Shown here: piece by piece, positions 3,712 to 53,708 of the stretch
Layout: every line of letters begins with the position of its first letter
Numbering within the stretch: position 1 is the stretch's first letter
DNA from: Planctomycetota bacterium
GTDB lineage: Bacteria > Planctomycetota > GCA-002687715 > DRQF01
Assembly (NCBI GenBank): GCA_047639315.1
Contig: JBLINQ010000005.1
Coordinates: 337 to 64,336, forward strand
DNA length: 64,000 bases
Direction: 5' to 3'
Notes under the pieces: model-generated
Told to the model about the DNA's origin: nothing
The model's database searches: none
What the model saw: only the letters and a program-made list of their open reading frames with translations
Position numbers and translations under genes: made by a program

Positions 3712-6363
<2,652 letters not shown>

Positions 6364-6719: not shown

Positions 6720-7081
6720 CGCTTGGTTTCCTCGTTGTTCCTGAGACGTTTGACTCGCCTGCAAAGCGTATTCTACGACTTACTTGTGGATCACTCCCAT
6801 CGTTCTACACCCGCGAAGCCACCACAGGTCTATCATACTGATCGAATCCGCCGACAACAGATATGACCTAAGGAGTTATGAACGACACTGGGAATAACGC
6901 CAGACCAAGGAGTTTCCTTTTGCCAGCCCCCCGCATCTGCTCACGCTTTACCCACAGGCGTCGCTCAAGACACAACATCCCAGTACGGGTGAATTCAATC
7001 TCCGTCGAGATCTCTTGTGAACAATGAGACACCAAGATTCGGTGCGCACTCATCAACATATTCGGCGAGTTTGGCCGCTCG

Positions 7082-10913: not shown

Positions 10914-10994
10914 AGTTCAATGTTGCGCTGCGTCGGTCCAAGTGTCAGCATCCGCCGACACAATAATCTCTTCGAGGGCGAAAGACAAAACGCT

Positions 10995-11660
10995 TCAACC
11001 TTGTCGGTCGACCATGGCCTGAATCCAAATGGGAACGAAGGGAGAAATACATCCTTTGGAGACGGGATAGTCGCGGAAGACGCCCAATGATTCACCGATC
11101 TTCATGGCGCGTTTGCGATGCTTGGGGAAGTTGATGCCAATTTCTCCAAGCGCAAAATTCATCGTCCACTGAGTATCAGGAGCAGCGTCACCCATTTCCG
11201 ACTCAATTCGATCCAAGAGTCCCTTGAGGTCGAGTCCTTCTGGGCTTTTGACAATTCGGCTTGCGGTGAGATTCCAACCAGCGCGAGCAGCCCAAATGTC
11301 GTCTGTTTTCATCCAATCTTCGCGTAGGGCTTCCTTGTCGGGATGATTCTTGACGACATAAGAGTTCACCCAGTCGGCCAACTGCGGCACCGAAGCAGAG
11401 CGCACGATCGCGTCCATCTCTTCTGTCGATAGTGACGCCGGCTTGATCACCAGAGTTGCCAAGAGGCGGGCATCGAGATTCTCAGTATCCCAAAGCTCGA
11501 AGGCCAATTTGTGGTTGGTTCTAATCTTTTTGGAGAGCTTCCGGATATCGCCGAGCTTGACGCCATATTGATTGTCGCCGGCGCCATGCTTTGCGTTTCG
11601 CTTGTAGACTTTCTCGTCAGCAGCCGCCTTGAGTGTTCTGAGTGCTTCTTTGAGTTTCAT
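10995..11660 (-). CDS. DNA alkylation repair protein (AlkD-like HEAT-repeat family)
   Basis: From the ATG at 11660: MKLKEALRTLKAAADEKVYKRNAKHGAGDNQYGVKLGDIRKLSK..., the typical N-terminus of this family. Confidence 0.7.
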   Translation of the reverse strand: MKLKEALRTLKAAADEKVYKRNAKHGAGDNQYGVKLGDIRKLSKKIRTNHKLAFELWDTENLDARLLATLVIKPASLSTEEMDAIVRSASVPQLADWVNSYVVKNHPDKEALREDWMKTDDIWAARAGWNLTASRIVKSPEGLDLKGLLDRIESEMGDAAPDTQWTMNFALGEIGINFPKHRKRAMKIGESLGVFRDYPVSKGCISPFVPIWIQAMVDRQG

Positions 11661-12296: not shown

Positions 12297-12464
12297 ATGG
12301 CAAAGAACAAGCACATCTTCGTCTTCCTTACCTCTATCCTCATCCTGTTCTTTTTCTTCATGTGGATGTTCAGTTGGCTGCGGAGCAACTCACCAACCGA
12401 AGAGTTCGGTGCAATCGACTTCACCCAGGAACAAACCACACCTGCACTGAAAGAGACCCGATGA
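12297..12464 (+). CDS. mini membrane protein (55 aa), paralog 1
   Basis: MAKNKHIFVFLTSILILFFFFMWMFSWLRSNS... Too short for the ORF track. Its stop overlaps the next start (ATGA at 12461-12464). Confidence 0.4.
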   Translation: MAKNKHIFVFLTSILILFFFFMWMFSWLRSNSPTEEFGAIDFTQEQTTPALKETR

Positions 12465-13754: not shown

Positions 13755-14257
13755 AATCGAACCTAATATCAGAAAAACCGGTGCTTGAATCTGCGCTACA
13801 GAGTCCTTCGTGGCGAATGAACGATTGGATGCAAAAAAATTTACGCAGGCCGACTTATCTCAGCTCGGTGCCTCGACCCCATGCGCGCTTTCGGCTTCCT
13901 CTGCTAACTGAACGACTTCTAAGCGCCAATCTTGCCACGCTTCGCTGCAAATCAGACATGAGTCTGTAATCGAAGAGGACCACTCAGAGTCACAAACGAA
14001 GCAGTGCCAGGAGGCCCCACTGAGCTTCTTCTCTAATGTCGTTTGAGGTTTGGTGACGGCATCGATCATTGAACGTCTCAGCTTTCAAGAAATCAGGACG
14101 TAGTTCTGTGGTGAAATCGTAGAACCTTCGTTCAGGTTGATTATTGATGTGATCTCGCTTCGACCACAGAACTTGTCCAGTCAAACACCTAATCGCGCTC
14201 CATTCACGATCGGATTCAGAGAAACAAGTGTTTCCTAAGGACTACTGGATCGCCGGG

Positions 14258-14286
14258 GCAGGTACGGAACCAGGTCTAATTCCCTC
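14258..14286. repeat. REP-like element (variant, 'ACCAGGTCTA' orientation)
   Basis: GCAGGTACGGAACCAGGTCTAATTCCCTC. It matches the reverse complement of 14881-14912 and the core of the RAYT-flanking repeats. Confidence 0.65.
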
Positions 14287-14757
14287 AGTCGAAGCGCAGG
14301 TCTTGGACCAACGACAAGAAGAGATCCAAAAGTCTGTACGCAAACTCAAGGCCCGAAAATGTAAGCTGCAAAAAGAATTGAAGAAGGCACAGGGTTCTTG
14401 ATCGATAGGTTCCGCGCTTAAGAAAGACCCTGCCTGGTCACACCATAGGCTTCGTCAAAACGAGCTGCCTTCTCTGACTCTCCCGGAAGATCGAAGTGTT
14501 CGATCCGGTCGATGAGTGCTAACGGATTTACTCGAACGACTTGCTCTCATTTGAAATCAAGACGATGCCCGTTGTGCTCCATCACGTCTCTGAAGAAGAC
14601 CTTTTGTGGTGTCTTGGGTAAGGGCCTCTATTGAACTCCCATAGCGAACAGGACCGAAGGTCGCCGCGACCCACTCGCCGATCGATCGGCACATCTGGAC
14701 AATAGTCTCAGCGCCACTCCTCAGGTTGCCTCGAAAAGCATGTTCACAGTTATTGGT

Positions 14758-14790
14758 CAGGCACCGAGGTACCGAACCAGATTTAATTCC
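14758..14790. repeat. degenerate REP-like element
   Basis: CAGGCACCGAGGTACCGAACCAGATTTAATTCC is similar to 14258-14286. Its CAGGCACCG head resembles the 56.6-kb repeat arms. Confidence 0.5.
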
Positions 14791-14880
14791 ATCGGCAGAA
14801 TGAGTGACTGTGCGGCGAAGAAGACATGCCGAGACAGGTCTTTGCGAGAAATAACGGAGGCAAGAATGGACACCACTGGC

Positions 14881-14912
14881 GAGGGGAATAGACCTGGTAC
14901 CGTACGGTACCC
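14881..14912. repeat. REP-like element containing a perfect 16-bp palindrome
   Basis: GAGGGGAATAGACCTGGTACCGTACGGTACCC shares GAGGGGRATAGACCTGGTAC with the 52924-53011 repeats. GGTACCGTACGGTACC (14896-14911) is a perfect palindrome that abuts the stop codon of the downstream gene. Confidence 0.7.
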
Positions 14913-16201
14913 TACTTAAAATCCTTGACGTACTTCATGACGGATTCGATGCACTGGTCGGAGTTGAAGTACTTGTAGTCGCCGAAGCGACCAAGGAGGT
15001 CGATGCCTTTGTTGCCGAGGAACTTGCGGACGATCTCGAGATTCTTTTCGAGGTCGTGGCTGTAGACGATGTAGGCGAAGCGGTTCTTCCAGGAGCGGGT
15101 GAAGAGGACTTTGTCAGCGGTGGCGAAGCCACAGCGGATGAGGCCGTCAACTACTTCCTTCTCACAAGCTTCAGCGTCGATGTCGCCTTTGTAGGTGACT
15201 TCAGCCATGAGGGCGCTCTTGCCTTCAGGGGCATTGCGTGGGCTGTAGTTGGAAATGTGCGTGACGCGGTTGAATGGTCCGTTTTCTGGATGTGGAAAGT
15301 AGATCCAGGAGCGGTCGCTTTCAGGCGGCTGATCGAGGGCGACGAGGATACTCATCACGCTGGTGTAGGTCAGGCCATCGAAGGCAGCTTGGATTTCGGC
15401 GGGGATGTCACCGAGGGTTGGGGCTAACTGCTGCAAGGGAATCGTTGAGATAACCTTGTCGTAGCGCTTGCCGTTCACCAAGTAACCATCGGCGTCTTGG
15501 ACCACGGTTTCGACCGGTGTGCCGACGTGGATCCGATCTTGATCGAGACGCTTGGCGATGCCGGTGACGATAGATTCAAAGCCACCGGTGAGCGGATACC
15601 AGAATACGCTTTGGTGCTTGTAGCCTTCGGTTTCGATGCCGATGGACGCGCGGATAACATCGCTGACCGGGGCGTCAGGAATGCGGCCGCTGACCCAGCG
15701 AATGCTCATGTCTTCGAGATCTGTCTTCCAGATCTTTTCGTTGTAGGGATGCATGAAGGTGCGGCTGATGCCGGTGCCGAAGCGCCAGTCACACCAGTCA
15801 CGGAAGTTCTGTGGTTCTTCCGCACCTTGCTCGCGAGCAAAATGGGCATCGATGTAGGTCGAGAGGCATTCGAAGTTGTCTTCTTTGGGCAGGTCGCCCA
15901 GGCCGTTCTCATACGGATAGCGCACGAAGTTGCCACGATAGTAGATGGCGCTCTTGCGTTCACTCTCGTGGGTGCCAAGGTCTTCGACAGCGTCGAGGAC
16001 GTACTGAAGCACCTCCTTGTTCTTCGAGAAGATGATGTGTCCGCCAGCACGGTCAGCAACGAAGCCGTCGACCGTTTCAGATTTGCATAAACCACCGAGG
16101 CGCTTGCTTGCTTCAAAGAGGTCATAGTCGACGCCCTTTTTTTGCAAAAGATCAGCCAAGCTCGTTCCAGTTATGCCACCGCCAAGAATCGCGACTTTCA
16201 C
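14912..16201 (-). CDS. FAD-dependent oxidoreductase (protoporphyrinogen/amine-oxidase-like fold)
   Basis: The N-terminal dinucleotide-binding motif is MKVAILGGGITGTSLADLL...FEASKRLGG; 429 aa. Confidence 0.65.
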   Translation of the reverse strand: MKVAILGGGITGTSLADLLQKKGVDYDLFEASKRLGGLCKSETVDGFVADRAGGHIIFSKNKEVLQYVLDAVEDLGTHESERKSAIYYRGNFVRYPYENGLGDLPKEDNFECLSTYIDAHFAREQGAEEPQNFRDWCDWRFGTGISRTFMHPYNEKIWKTDLEDMSIRWVSGRIPDAPVSDVIRASIGIETEGYKHQSVFWYPLTGGFESIVTGIAKRLDQDRIHVGTPVETVVQDADGYLVNGKRYDKVISTIPLQQLAPTLGDIPAEIQAAFDGLTYTSVMSILVALDQPPESDRSWIYFPHPENGPFNRVTHISNYSPRNAPEGKSALMAEVTYKGDIDAEACEKEVVDGLIRCGFATADKVLFTRSWKNRFAYIVYSHDLEKNLEIVRKFLGNKGIDLLGRFGDYKYFNSDQCIESVMKYVKDFK

Positions 16202-24251: not shown

Positions 24252-24323
24252 GCCAGTGTAGCTCAATGGTAGAGTACAGCTTTCGTAAAGCTGGGGTTGA
24301 GGGTTCGATTCCCTCCACTGGCT
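24252..24323 (+). tRNA. tRNA-Thr (anticodon CGT)
   Basis: The cloverleaf folds by hand. Acceptor GCCAGTG/CACTGGC, anticodon stem CAGCT/AGCTG with loop TTCGTAA, T-arm GAGGG-TTCGATT-CCCTC. No CCA is encoded. Confidence 0.9.
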
Positions 24324-50610: not shown

Positions 50611-51012
50611 TCAGGATTCGCGATAGCCAAGAACAACGAGCAAGCATGGTCCACTGTGTATCGTGGTCATGTTTGCTTTTTCCGCCATGGCAATCGCCGC
50701 CGGAGACTCAGCCCCAGGCTGCATCCAAATGGCGGAGATGCCCAATTCAATCGCCTCTGCGATCAACTGCTCAGTAATCTTGGGCGGCGTGATGATAGAG
50801 AGAGCGACTTCCTTTGGGCGCTCAATATCTGACAACGACGCGATGGCCTTGACCCCTTCAATCTCCGTCGCCCGCGGATTCAGACCAATAGCATCCCGCC
50901 CATTCTGCAAGTAGCAGCGAAGCACCTTGTTGCCATACTTCATGCGGTTCGTCGAAGCTCCAGCCACAACAAAACGGTCGTAGGCCAAAAAATCCGTGGT
51001 GTCGTCACTCAT
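50611..51012 (-). CDS. CoA-binding domain protein (YccU/YneT-like)
   Basis: RFVVAGASTNRMKYGNKVLR...AIWMQPGAES is typical of this family. An ATGA overlap joins it to hslO. Confidence 0.75.
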   Translation of the reverse strand: MSDDTTDFLAYDRFVVAGASTNRMKYGNKVLRCYLQNGRDAIGLNPRATEIEGVKAIASLSDIERPKEVALSIITPPKITEQLIAEAIELGISAIWMQPGAESPAAIAMAEKANMTTIHSGPCLLVVLGYRES

Positions 51013-51785
51013 TCGTCTTCTCCGTCAAAAAGATCTCTACGTATTTGCCAATGCCTACCGCATCGCGGACATTGGGCCTTGAGTGTCTCGTCTTCGGCAA
51101 AGAACTCATCACCCTTACCGGCGTACATCTGCCGCAGTGCTTTCGCCAAGCGCTTCGGGTCACAACCACATTGAAACCAGAACTCTTTTTCGTCCAAAAG
51201 AGCCAGGCCTTCAATGCCTTTGACAGCCGTCTCTCGGTCAAGACCTTCGAGCCACATCCTGTCCTTCTTAGGCAGACTCGCGACCATCAGAAAACGGTTG
51301 TCTTCCAAATCAAAGAACTTCGCCGGAGCTTGATCCGAACGGCGGCAATATTCCTCAAGAATCACCAAAACATCAATTCCGGCGACGTCAATCACTGACG
51401 TTGAATCTGCGCCCTTCGCACGTTGCGTTTGAACATAGAGCCGATTCATCCCCAGGTCTTTGACCCCCGCCACCCAAGGACGACCCGTGACGCGTCTGTC
51501 ACTGGCGCTGCCCGTGACAAAGATGTTGGTCGGAGGCTTGCAAATATTGAGAGTAAAGGCGCTCGTCTCATCCAATGGTCGACAGGAGTGATAAAGGGCA
51601 CATCCCGCCAAGGCCTGACGCATCATGAGATTAGTCAGGGGACTGTCGTCATGCTCCCAAACCGAAGCATGGGAATCATAAGCCTCATGCAGTGCCTCAA
51701 AATTGCCGATGGCGAAAATAGCTTCCCGCTCTTTGTCGAGATAGCGCTCGATTGTCACGCTACCCGTGGAGTTTTCATTGCTCAT
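51009..51785 (-). CDS. hslO: Hsp33-family redox-regulated chaperone
   Basis: The C-terminal zinc centre is CGC...CPRC (FQCGCDPKR...QCPRCG). The N-terminal domain has typical length. Confidence 0.7.
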   Translation of the reverse strand: MSNENSTGSVTIERYLDKEREAIFAIGNFEALHEAYDSHASVWEHDDSPLTNLMMRQALAGCALYHSCRPLDETSAFTLNICKPPTNIFVTGSASDRRVTGRPWVAGVKDLGMNRLYVQTQRAKGADSTSVIDVAGIDVLVILEEYCRRSDQAPAKFFDLEDNRFLMVASLPKKDRMWLEGLDRETAVKGIEGLALLDEKEFWFQCGCDPKRLAKALRQMYAGKGDEFFAEDETLKAQCPRCGRHWQIRRDLFDGEDE

Positions 51786-51817
51786 ACGAGATTATGCAAA
51801 GATCTGAACTTCAATTC

Positions 51818-51893
51818 CACCTGTACCGTACCAGGTCTACAAGCGTCGGTTGAAACACCTGTACCGTACCAGGTCTACAAGCGTCGGTTGAAA
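51818..51893. repeat. perfect 38-bp tandem duplicate (REP doublet, left)
   Basis: CACCTGTACCGTACCAGGTCTACAAGCGTCGGTTGAAA occurs at 51818-51855 and again at 51856-51893, identical. Confidence 0.95.
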
Positions 51894-52849
51894 AGACGCA
51901 GCGGACTATTCTCCAACGCCATCGACCCAATCTGCGATACCAAGCCCACAAGTTCTGGGTTTGACTCCATAAGAAATCGATATCGCTTGTAGGACTTAGT
52001 TGAAGCTGTCTCACTACGCTGCGTCTTGTTCCCAATCTCGACGAAACTGAGGCCGCAGAAGTCCCGGAGCAATCCAGATGACATGTGCTTCAACATCATA
52101 CCGGCACGGACAGGACATTGTTCCGTAAGTCGCTGTATTGAGCTTTCAGATCTTCCTATCGCGATCAGGATAGACCGGGGGTCACAAATCGGAAGGCCTG
52201 GCTTGGTTCCGTCAGCGAGTTCGGCTTTCCTTGTCATCCAGTCGAGAACGCGTTCAGGGCTCGAGTGCAACAACAAGTCATCGCATTCGTTCTTGCGAGG
52301 TTTACGGAGGTGGCTCTCCACGACAAACGACAGCGCGTTGTAATCGCCTGCTGACAAGTGAATGTCATCTGACATGCTGAACGGATTTGGGAACCACCGC
52401 GGGGGCTTTCCCGGTCGTCGGTAGAAGGCGCTGCAAAACTCATAGTCACTCGGTCGTTCAACCATTCCCGCCTGGACAGGATTATACTCGATGTATGGCC
52501 CGAGGATCTGACTGTACTCATCGCTGTCCACCAATTTCGACATAAACCGTCCACGGACCAAGGGGCCATCGCGATGGCGCGAACGATTGAAATACCTCGA
52601 ATAGCCCAACTGAATGTGGTGCATTGCTTGATCAAGCTGCCCCGAGACACTCACTACGAACAAATGGTAGTGAGTCGACATGAGGCAAAATCCGAGAAGC
52701 ACAATTCTCTTCTTCCGAACCTCCCTCGCAATCAACGAGAGGAAAAACCTCATGTCTTTGCGAGATTCAAAGAGAGTACGCCGGGCGATACCACGGTTCA
52801 TTATGTGGTGGCGAGTATCGGGACCATCTGCGCGTTCGATTCTTGACAT
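51875..52849 (-). CDS. REP-associated tyrosine transposase (RAYT, IS200/IS605-like Y1 family) with a DnaA-domain-IV-like C-terminal HTH
   Basis: HUH motif in STHYHLFV and a catalytic-Tyr context YIEYNPVQAGMV. The C-terminus LSFVEIGNKTQRSETASTKSYKRY resembles the DnaA C-terminal HTH. GAGGTG lies upstream of the ATG at 52849. The stop lies inside the REP doublet. Confidence 0.8.
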   Translation of the reverse strand: MSRIERADGPDTRHHIMNRGIARRTLFESRKDMRFFLSLIAREVRKKRIVLLGFCLMSTHYHLFVVSVSGQLDQAMHHIQLGYSRYFNRSRHRDGPLVRGRFMSKLVDSDEYSQILGPYIEYNPVQAGMVERPSDYEFCSAFYRRPGKPPRWFPNPFSMSDDIHLSAGDYNALSFVVESHLRKPRKNECDDLLLHSSPERVLDWMTRKAELADGTKPGLPICDPRSILIAIGRSESSIQRLTEQCPVRAGMMLKHMSSGLLRDFCGLSFVEIGNKTQRSETASTKSYKRYRFLMESNPELVGLVSQIGSMALENSPLRLFNRRL

Positions 52850-52923
52850 TCTTTCACCTCTTACAGTGAGGTCGTACTAATTCGGCGAGGTGGACCGATT
52901 ATGACGAGAATGTGATCTTTATT

Positions 52924-53011
52924 GTGGCGAAAGCGAGGGGGATAGACCTGGTACGGTACAGGAGGTTGTGGCGAAAGCGAGGGGGATAGACCTGGTACGG
53001 TACAGGAGGTT
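52924..53011. repeat. perfect 44-bp tandem duplicate (REP doublet, right, inverted core)
   Basis: GTGGCGAAAGCGAGGGGGATAGACCTGGTACGGTACAGGAGGTT occurs at 52924-52967 and again at 52968-53011, identical. Confidence 0.95.
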
Positions 53012-53708
53012 AGTCGTTGGCGCCGAGGCCGATGGAGGGGGAACCGAAAGTTTCGTTGGCATAGATCAAAAGAGCGTTGATGAAGCAGATGACGCCGGTC
53101 ATTTCGAGGAACTCTTCGCAGGTGTAGAGGATCGCCTTGGTTAGGGGTTCGGAGTTGCCGAAGATTTCTTGGGAGCGGGCCGAGATGGTTTCGAAGCCTA
53201 TGGCACCGGCCAAAAAGAGAATGCCGGAAAGGGCAAATCGGAAGAAGGTCTTGCGCGGCAACTGGAATAGGAACTTGGCGCAAAAGAACAGCAAGATCGC
53301 TAAGCCGATTTCATAGAAGATCATCCAGCCAAAAGAAAAGGACAGGGACGATCCGAAGATCTTGTGGCCGTATTTGGACAGACGTTCGTGAAGTTCAACT
53401 GACTCATCGATGCAAAGAAAGACAAAGACCGCCGAGAATCGCAACCAACAGCTATGGGCATCGCCTCTTTTCTTATGCCCGGTGGCAATGAGATAGAGCA
53501 CAAACGCAGCGAGGCCAAGGATCATGGATGAGAACAGTGTCGGGATATTCTGTTCGGTGTCGAAGTCGAAGAGTGGGACAAGCCCGAAGACGCGATCTCG
53601 GTCAAACCCAAGTCGAAAGACAATGCCGGCGATGTTGGCAAAAAGCAAGATGCCAACAACGATGAGCAATCTTCGAACCATCGACTTGGGGCAGAATTCA
53701 ATCTTCAT
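53010..53708 (-). CDS. hypothetical multi-pass membrane protein
   Basis: 232 aa with ~6 TM helices. Its stop codon (53010-53012) lies at the end of the second REP copy. Confidence 0.55.
   Translation of the reverse strand: MKIEFCPKSMVRRLLIVVGILLFANIAGIVFRLGFDRDRVFGLVPLFDFDTEQNIPTLFSSMILGLAAFVLYLIATGHKKRGDAHSCWLRFSAVFVFLCIDESVELHERLSKYGHKIFGSSLSFSFGWMIFYEIGLAILLFFCAKFLFQLPRKTFFRFALSGILFLAGAIGFETISARSQEIFGNSEPLTKAILYTCEEFLEMTGVICFINALLIYANETFGSPSIGLGAND

Follow-up and report, generated by a model that had tools for sequence, protein, structure and literature searches.

Long REP-associated tyrosine transposases (RAYTs; REP, repetitive extragenic palindrome) with a C-terminal helix-turn-helix (HTH) tail, variously called Group 1, subclass 2.1 or TIRYTs, form the largest RAYT group. 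To our knowledge they are still without biochemical characterisation, and the in vitro work known to us covers Groups 2 and 3 only (PMC8266576). Here we describe a gene of this general kind, together with the tandem repeats on both of its sides, in a 64,000-nucleotide stretch of a Planctomycetota metagenome-assembled genome (assembly GCA_047639315.1, contig JBLINQ010000005.1, positions 337 to 64,336). This whole stretch is called the window hereafter, and coordinates refer to it unless a related locus is named.

In RAYT chemistry, a tyrosine attacks single-stranded DNA, a 5'-phosphotyrosine forms and the strand is transferred (PMC8266576). Di Nocera, De Gregorio & Rocco (2013, BMC Genomics 14:522; PMC3733652) described RAYT-like genes flanked by terminal inverted repeats (TIRs) instead of GTAG-tagged REPs as TIRtrons encoding TIRYTs. 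These TIRs sometimes overlap the gene ends and in some cases make up modest families in which singles, dimers and clusters occur, and such loci occur in many phyla, with many RAYT-type genes and repeats in the planctomycete Rhodopirellula baltica. Subclass 2.1 of Quentin et al. (2018, BMC Genomics 19:475; PMC6006769) corresponds to Group 1 of Bertels and comprises long proteins with C-terminal HTH domains, Bac_DnaA_C-like ones included, and no REP hairpins adjoining the gene; it was equated with the TIRYTs. The 16-mers flanking Group 1 genes are of low abundance, at ~12 per replicon (Bertels, Gallie & Rainey 2017; PMC5581495). The literature already contains long RAYTs that combine a tail of the HTH or DnaA-C type with terminal inverted repeats, and the locus presented here is real but of a described kind. 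A preliminary description of the sequence had pointed to the setting in the PVC group (Planctomycetota, Verrucomicrobiota, Chlamydiota) and to the DnaA-C fusion; neither is new, both being described in PMC3733652 and PMC6006769.

We read the locus, with a probability of about 0.7, as a RAYT-class cassette of the long, HTH-tailed type, i.e. a TIRtron encoding a TIRYT, which is nearest to TnpA-Y1 subclass 2.1 and Bertels Group 1 and is present as a resident single gene. The predicted product of this one chromosomal gene is a Y1/HUH single-strand-DNA nuclease-ligase fused to a DnaA-domain-IV-like module, and arrays of a cognate repeat of ~40 nt, its likely recognition sequence, stand in inverted orientation on both sides of the gene. 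As in TIRtrons, the RAYT-like gene is longer than classical RAYTs (324 aa here), is flanked by TIRs and is overlapped by a repeat at its 3' end. The locus, which we set beside TIRYTs by description, differs in that its flanks are perfect direct doublets. Moreover, many TIRs carry the motif GGGGWSAS, whereas the right unit has it with one mismatch (GGGGATAG), relatives have GGGAGAAT, GGCGGAAA and similar versions, none of them an exact match, and the core of the lineage is CTGnnnCnGTA.

Architecture of the locus and its flanking repeats

The gene, its two domains and the repeat units are arranged as follows.

51818..51855, minus strand: outer unit of the downstream repeat, a tandem copy perfectly identical to the inner one, with the duplicated 3' coding end included
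51856..51893, minus strand: inner unit of the downstream repeat, 38 nt, minus-strand sequence TTTCAACCGACGCTTGTAGACCTGGTACGGTACAGGTG; holds the last codons and the stop of the gene
51875..52849, minus strand: RAYT-class Y1/HUH transposase-like gene, intact, 324 aa (list of open reading frames; Y1_Tnp profile)
51878..52372, minus strand: C-terminal module (aa 160-324), in which a linker leads into a DnaA-domain-IV-like helix-turn-helix bundle at aa ~224-321 (51887-52180)
52400..52849, minus strand: N-terminal catalytic domain, aa 1-150, with the HUH motif H60-Y-H62 at 52664-52672 and Tyr119 (YIEYNP) at 52493-52495
52922..52965, plus strand: inner upstream repeat unit, 44 nt, TTGTGGCGAAAGCGAGGGGGATAGACCTGGTACGGTACAGGAGG; starts 72 nt upstream of the ATG
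52966..53011, plus strand: outer upstream repeat unit, a perfect tandem copy with a 2-nt periodic extension; adjoins the stop of a membrane-protein gene

The left doublet (51818-51893) consists of 2.0 copies of its 38-nt unit and the right doublet (52922-53011) of 2.05 copies of its 44-nt unit, both 100% identical and without indels according to Tandem Repeats Finder and a second repeat search. They are by far the top-scoring tandem repeats that Tandem Repeats Finder reports in the window. The right repeat allows a 2-nt shift of phase, 52924-52967 and 52968-53011 being equally valid as units. A 20-nt core, CCTGTACCGTACCAGGTCTA, has four exact occurrences, two on the plus strand (left) and two on the minus strand (right), and with up to three mismatches allowed it gave 0.00 chance matches in 100 dinucleotide-preserving shuffles. 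The inverted match between the left and right units reaches 23-25 nt, beyond which the two unit types are unrelated, and the cores of both flanks read outward from the gene. Doublets, inverted core and intact open reading frame (ORF) are thus confirmed as observations, and the preliminary description was accurate in reporting perfect tandem units of 38 and 44 bp, a shared inverted core and flanks that differ outside it.

The same description had the repeats supply the stop codons of both adjoining genes, which holds for one of them. The inner left unit contains the stop of the RAYT-type gene, namely the TAG of GTAGACC (51875-51877), along with the last six codons; the coding part of the doublet amounts to 19 nt besides the stop. 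In the neighbouring membrane-protein gene, on the other hand, the stop (53010-53012) has only its first two bases (53010-53011) in common with the periodic extension of the right repeat and merely adjoins it. Because its unit includes coding sequence, the left doublet is best seen as a local tandem duplication and not as two free-standing REP insertions. Recent activity had been deduced from the 100% identity of the copies, and this was overstated: perfect identity over 38 and 44 nt shows only that divergence is below about 1-2% and is therefore weak evidence of recent activity. Next to the downstream doublet, the start codon of an Hsp33-family gene (51009-51785) lies 32 nt from the end of the doublet (spacer 51786-51817), so that the repeat occupies its likely promoter or 5' leader.

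It is hardly credible that the perfect doublets were made by the assembler, even though the contig is metagenome-assembled and the junctions between units are spanned by a single assembly. A 38-44-nt unit present twice makes no cycle at usual k-mer sizes, and doubled flanks are found in relatives from other studies, including a perfect 25-nt unit in two copies at locus L015. Furthermore, a Logan unitig of 1088 nt (run SRR28416755), which is an independent assembly, is identical to 51864-52951 and ends exactly 30 nt (k-1 at k=31) inside each inner repeat unit, as expected if the de Bruijn graph branches at a repeat.

The catalytic domain

The 324-aa gene is preceded by a Shine-Dalgarno-like GAGGTG 7 nt before its ATG, and its ORF contains the HUH motif THYHLF and the tyrosine helix YIEYNPV. 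Both had been recognised in the initial reading, and H60, H62, Y119, I120 and N123 proved invariant among 44 aligned homologues. YIEYNP, the Y motif, follows the class 2 (RAYT) pattern Y-[IV]-x-x-N-P and not the IS200 pattern Y-x-x-x-Q (motifs from Table 1 of PMC6006769). Pfam Y1_Tnp (PF01797) matched aa 13-121 with 26.7 bits against a gathering cut-off of 23, and likewise 44 of the 44 aligned relatives, while the RAYT equivalog NF047646 (REP_Tyr_transpos) was the only NCBIfam match. An AlphaFold2 model built on the 44-homologue alignment (mean predicted local distance difference test score 85.8) had as its top Foldseek match in the PDB 4er8_A, the E. coli RAYT-REP complex (E 2.2e-5, target-normalised template-modelling (TM) score 0.67), followed by the TnpA structures of IS608, ISDra2 and IS200 (2a6o, 2vjv and 2xma as fold matches). 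The family profile also reached 4er8 among PDB sequences, at E 0.007. The early identification of the gene as a Y1/HUH transposase of the RAYT class is supported by these results.

A search of 5.8 billion proteins found 239 homologues. Among the 120 listed, nearly all are about 310-390 aa long, most have more than 85% query coverage, and the organism, for those entries that name one, always belongs to the Planctomycetota. The source of the window is itself a Planctomycetota metagenome-assembled genome, as had been guessed from its PVC-type appearance. For genome annotation the gene is ordinary, as public pipelines already name the protein RayT: this exact sequence carries the label "REP element-mobilizing transposase RayT" at NCBI and JGI.

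The C-terminal DnaA-like module

The C-terminus of the model was matched by Foldseek to 3pvp_A, the DNA-binding domain of M. tuberculosis DnaA (probability 1.00, target-normalised TM 0.76, 94 columns), and positions 241-329 of the family profile hit the DnaA domain IV structures 1j1v, 2hcb, 1l8q and 3pvp at E 0.04-0.06. Relatives weakly match HTH_23, HTH_38 and Sigma70_r4. However, Pfam Bac_DnaA_C gave no match, neither in this protein at E<=1 nor in the 44 relatives at E<=0.1, and the DnaA-box-contacting signature RDHTTV is not kept, the aligned segment reading RSETAS. Because the profile match and the base-contacting signature are both missing, the resemblance to DnaA is one of fold and not of specificity. 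Of the DnaA domain-IV-like terminus first suggested for this protein, the fold stands (the structural match to 3pvp and the four profile hits), while the expected Bac_DnaA_C match does not; judged from the model, the HTH is genuine as a fold and no further.

A linker motif, W204..KA.LADGT....P220 (W..(R)KA.LADGT.PGLP; aa 204-220, 52190-52240), connects the catalytic domain with the HTH bundle and is invariant or nearly so; W204 and D213-G214 are invariant in the 44-homologue alignment, and model confidence is low at 213-215. When aa 160-324 alone were searched against 1.84 billion representatives at E<=0.001, only 268 clusters (50% identity) were found, nearly all of them about 310-370 aa long with the match at the C-terminal end. 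This 165-aa module is thus private to a lineage of modest size. One protein from the representative search (P0159, 1176 aa) has six separate stretches that match the HTH part of the module and may be a repeat protein built from the HTH domain.

Proteins with DnaA domain IV bind arrays of direct repeats. The flanks of the gene might be operator arrays only, bound by the DnaA-like HTH for autoregulation of the gene or of its neighbours, while the HUH domain no longer processes DNA. The upstream doublet, 72-160 nt before the ATG, is in a possible operator position, and so is the downstream doublet upstream of the Hsp33-family gene. Nevertheless, we consider this very improbable. The catalytic H-u-H and Tyr residues are invariant across the family, autoregulation leaves the gene-less copies and dimers found elsewhere unexplained, and no sigma-70-like promoter was found in the repeats, the upstream doublet included, by a scan that covers planctomycete promoters poorly and is uninformative for Planctomycetota.

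Position among described RAYT subclasses

The nearest annotated relatives, in PLSDB, are proteobacterial plasmid "transposases" of 234-287 aa with the signature of subclass 2.1 (NHxH, TLWEGRF, YIELNPVRAGMV, WSSY), 33-35% identical over aa 1-180, one of which has a weak Bac_DnaA_C match. Plasmid relatives match in the N-terminal domain only, at 24-35% identity (47% over one 53-residue match). With subclass 2.1 (especially 2.1.2) and Group 1, the window protein shares the class 2 Y motif (YI.xNP), a long chain, an HTH tail related to Bac_DnaA_C/HTH_23/HTH_28 and the lack of REP hairpins. Its motifs read T-H-[YF]-H instead of N-H-x-H, L-[VF]-R (GPLVRGRF) instead of W[EQ]/FQ and CSA instead of SS, with YIEYNP close to YIELNP or Y[IV]HLNP. 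Further, the proteins of its lineage are ~330 aa long compared with a median of 238, and their C-terminal module does not align with the proteobacterial tails. The lineage is filed next to subclass 2.1 and not in it because of the T-HxH, the missing W[EQ], the SA in place of SS and the longer private tail.

Several points weigh against the assignment of the locus to the TIRtron type. The signatures of subclass 2.1 are not exact (THYH for NH[VYF]H, LVR for W[EQ], SA for SS), and the proteobacterial subclass 2.1-like proteins align only over the stretch and at the identity given above. REP_Tyr_transpos scored 51.3 bits, which is under its cut-off of 80, and the lack of a Bac_DnaA_C match counts here as well. 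The copy number of both repeat and gene refers to the 64-kb window and not to the whole genome. Lastly, the sequence does not tell enzyme action from slippage as the origin of the doublets.

A somewhat different outcome, possible though rather doubtful, is that the ~330-aa Planctomycetota lineage represents a separate, undescribed RAYT subclass, which would read a linear motif (CTGnnnCnGTA with its purine tract) sequence-specifically in place of a hairpin and directly make the tandem and inverted doublets of its own flanks by cleavage and rejoining. Its marks may be the T-HxH motif, the absence of a conserved Trp and the private 165-aa module ending in the DnaA-IV-like HTH. If true, a Y1 enzyme would here be directed to arrays of boxes much as an origin-binding protein is.

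Linear motif or hairpin

The preliminary description had called the flanks REP doublets and likened them to the REP/REPIN clients of RAYTs, but neither the palindromic hairpin that the term REP implies nor a doublet of the REPIN type (REP doublets forming hairpins) was recovered. The repeat units of the window fold no better than shuffled sequences (z -0.07 to -1.8). On the minus strand, the left unit has GTAG followed by ACCTG-GTACGGTA-CAGGT, a 5-bp stem, and the right unit has ATAG instead of GTAG and a stem of 4 bp only; among the relatives, the tetranucleotide before the core varies (ATAG, TTAG, TCTG, AATA, ATGA, TAAG). RNAalifold found no consensus pair in 16 aligned units from five genomes (the window and its four closest relatives). 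Because there is no consensus structure, folding is shuffle-like and GTAG is not kept, the conserved thing is the sequence and not a hairpin. A conserved hairpin was rejected on these grounds, and the GTAG, which is confined to the left unit and not conserved in relatives, is treated as coincidence. Whereas classical REPs combine a stable palindrome with a conserved 5' GTAG, the window units have neither, and whereas REPINs are inverted pairs that form one long hairpin, the window doublets are direct repeats.

A further comparison is with the REPtrons of E. coli, Stenotrophomonas and Marinomonas (Groups 2 and 3; 4er8; PMC8266576). The catalytic fold is alike, as are the single gene with inverted cognate repeats and the expected cleavage with a Tyr-5'-phosphate linkage and strand transfer of single-stranded DNA. 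Their proteins, however, have ~150-165 aa and no HTH tail, their REPs are GTAG-tagged hairpins that occur in hundreds, and the structure-based identity to 4er8 is only 17%; the present repeat has no conserved hairpin or tag. We regard it as quite unlikely that the locus is a classical REPtron, in which the 20-nt core would be a GTAG-tagged REP hairpin read as folded single-stranded DNA and would belong to a large dispersed REP/REPIN population. The GTAG and 5-bp stem of the left unit would fit, GTAG REPs have been reported in PVC bacteria (PMC3733652), and one of the solitary repeat copies in the window (copy C below) holds a perfect 16-nt palindrome, GGTACCGTACGGTACC. Against this stand the shuffle-like folding energies, the ATAG and shorter stem of the right unit, the variable tag among relatives, the lack of a consensus pair and the small number of additional copies in 64 kb, which are three and diverged.

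Related loci

Ten loci of relatives with 36-49% protein identity were fetched (those cited here are L006, L008, L009, L011, L012, L015, L016, L020 and L021). All 10 have an inverted repeat pair 996-1170 nt apart around a gene of ~1 kb, so the bracketing by inverted repeats that had been noted as RAYT architecture recurs throughout. The inverted match is 27-68 nt long in the relatives and 23-25 nt in the window. The flanks take several forms.

L011: a direct pair of units in both flanks, 89% identical
L009: a direct pair of units in both flanks
L008: four or more units arrayed upstream; downstream, a single unit that overlaps the stop
L015: perfect 25-nt unit in two copies at the 3' end of the gene
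L020: 3835-3933 and 5111-5221, each an inverted hairpin-forming dimer
L021: 3838-3953 and 4931-5047, each an inverted hairpin-forming dimer

In the 16-unit alignment, the linear core CTGnnnCnGTA follows a purine-rich tract, is often also preceded by CTGGCG and always reads outward, and it is kept across proteins that are only 40-49% identical. The flank dimers of L020 and L021 form hairpins of 33-43 bp (z -10 and -15), and in each of these loci the two flank dimers are direct repeats of each other, unlike the direct doublets of the window. Dimers without a gene also occur. A strong hairpin dimer at L011 (6882-6981) has its cores at the outer ends, and an inverted dimer of a P0120-type flanking repeat lies in L012 (9328-9439), in the atpD-atpC spacer of the ATP synthase operon, with 40-nt arms (z -13); together, the gene-less dimers of L011 and L012 span z -13 to -16. 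The REPIN-like combination of an inverted pair and a long hairpin is thus present in L011, L012, L020 and L021 (z -10 to -16).

This geometry brings up an autonomous insertion sequence (IS), in which the ~1.2-kb unit of repeats, gene and repeats would be mobile and TIR-ended, and the gene-less dimers of relatives would be deletion derivatives resembling miniature inverted-repeat transposable elements (MITEs). The TIRs hug the gene, the gene-less dimers keep their cores at the outer ends as expected from IS and MITE geometry, and the relatives sit in unrelated gene neighbourhoods. Group 1 is also the most IS-like group of true RAYTs, with 6.3% duplicates and 1.2% on plasmids (PMC5581495). Still, we find such an element unlikely. 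The window holds one copy of the gene in 64 kb and no second copy, fragment or pseudogene, the cluster of the protein consists of a single member from one contig together with its Logan twin, and the protein P0010 keeps to one genomic location from assembly to assembly. Two paralogues on one 3.99-Mb contig are diverged and have different repeats. GC content at the locus equals the background (0.52 vs 0.53), and inspection of the sequence at the outer repeat ends showed no target-site duplication. The protein shares the HUH/Y1 fold with IS200/IS605 TnpA, as the Foldseek matches to IS608, ISDra2 and IS200 indicate, whereas the IS200 Y---Q motif, subterminal non-inverted hairpins, high copy number and the frequent tnpB of that family are not seen here, the gene list of the window having no tnpB-like neighbour of the RAYT-type gene. 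Likewise, an integrated replicon origin with a rolling-circle Rep and iterons was considered and rejected, given that the fold is that of TnpA/RAYT and not of Rep and that composition equals the background.

Repeat copies away from the gene

No exact 20-mer occurs in the window outside the four flanking units. Relaxed patterns, i.e. ACCTGnnnCSGTA (6 matches vs 0.12 expected) and TAGACCTGGTNCSGTAC with up to three mismatches (7 matches vs 0.26 expected), add three diverged copies, all at one locus (14.26-14.92 kb), and nothing else in the 64 kb. Of the two results that the preliminary description had named as refuting it, a missing Y1_Tnp match and a core absent from the rest of the genome, neither was obtained outright.

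14255..14285, minus strand: solo degenerate copy A, GAGGGAATTAGACCTGGTTCCGTACCTGCCCC on the minus strand
14757..14795, minus strand: solo degenerate copy B, reading GGAATTAAATCTGGTTCGGTACCTCGG on the minus strand; ~100 nt from copy C and in the opposite orientation
14877..14916, plus strand: solo degenerate copy C, reading CTGGCGAGGGGAATAGACCTGGTACCGTACGGTACCCTAC; similar to the upstream-type unit and adjoining the stop of an amine-oxidase-family gene (14912-16201)

All three lie in a region of ~1.1 kb without an ORF of at least 70 aa (13770-14911), between a small membrane-protein gene and the amine-oxidase-family gene. No decayed RAYT was detected at 14.26-14.92 kb, either by tblastn with 44 family members (E>=0.05) or by six-frame hmmsearch (E>=1.4, noise). 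Copies B and C fold weakly together as a pair (z -2.6). Compared with the gene-flanking cores, copy C is more like both the upstream-type unit and the repeat of L006, the closest relative, and it reads CCGTAC where the flanking cores read CGGTAC. This pattern suggests that the four flanking cores have perhaps been homogenised. A scan with RTAGACCTGGTACSGTACRG of genome and metagenome contig collections, neither of which contains the source contig, returned only one to three unrelated single chance matches. The only Rfam match at the gathering threshold in the window is a tRNA gene (24252-24323).

Proposed mechanism

If the locus is a TIRtron-type cassette, the conserved core CTGnnnCnGTA would be the recognition or cleavage determinant of the enzyme, and the HTH module would likely read DNA that is double-stranded or of specific sequence, not a REP hairpin. 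Given the fold and the invariant residues, RAYT/IS200/IS605 chemistry is expected here: Tyr119 would cut one strand through a covalent 5'-phosphotyrosine and the enzyme would rejoin the DNA, as Group 2 and 3 RAYTs do. Such cleavage and rejoining, or plain replication slippage at these sites, might make tandem and inverted doublets and occasionally seed new copies, and the perfect doublets of the window would then be local tandem duplications of the terminal segment. The gene itself seems to be resident, probably vertically kept and single-copy rather than an active insertion sequence, in keeping with its background-like composition and single copy in the window.

The locus and its relatives offer a clean comparative set, with an intact gene, invariant catalytic residues, a linear core that is kept and flanks that occur in duplicate, as direct repeats or as hairpin dimers. 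With the 38- and 44-nt units as concrete substrates, one can ask by what means DNA is recognised in this group and whether targeting is the task of the DnaA-like domain.

Further observations at related loci

In other bacteria, elements of the IS110 family target REP-like sequences. Two unrelated relatives have an IS110-family transposase gene directly beside the downstream flanking repeat (L012 11385-12470 and L015 11252-12301). The L015 element is bounded by a 16-nt inverted repeat (10992-11007 / 12375-12390) and lies 4 nt from the flanking repeat. By analogy, the flanking repeats may be targets of IS110-family elements.

Two further repeats were noted in the contigs of relatives. L009 has an unrelated intergenic tandem array of a 37-nt unit (AAAAGTGGGCGAGCCTGAGCTCTCCCACGATCCAAAG), in four to five units, at 4382-4566. 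In L016, the palindrome AAAAAACCAGGCGGGCTGGTTTTTT, which has the shape of a bidirectional terminator, occurs three times in 21 kb (6791-6825, 15082-15116 and 15633-15667).

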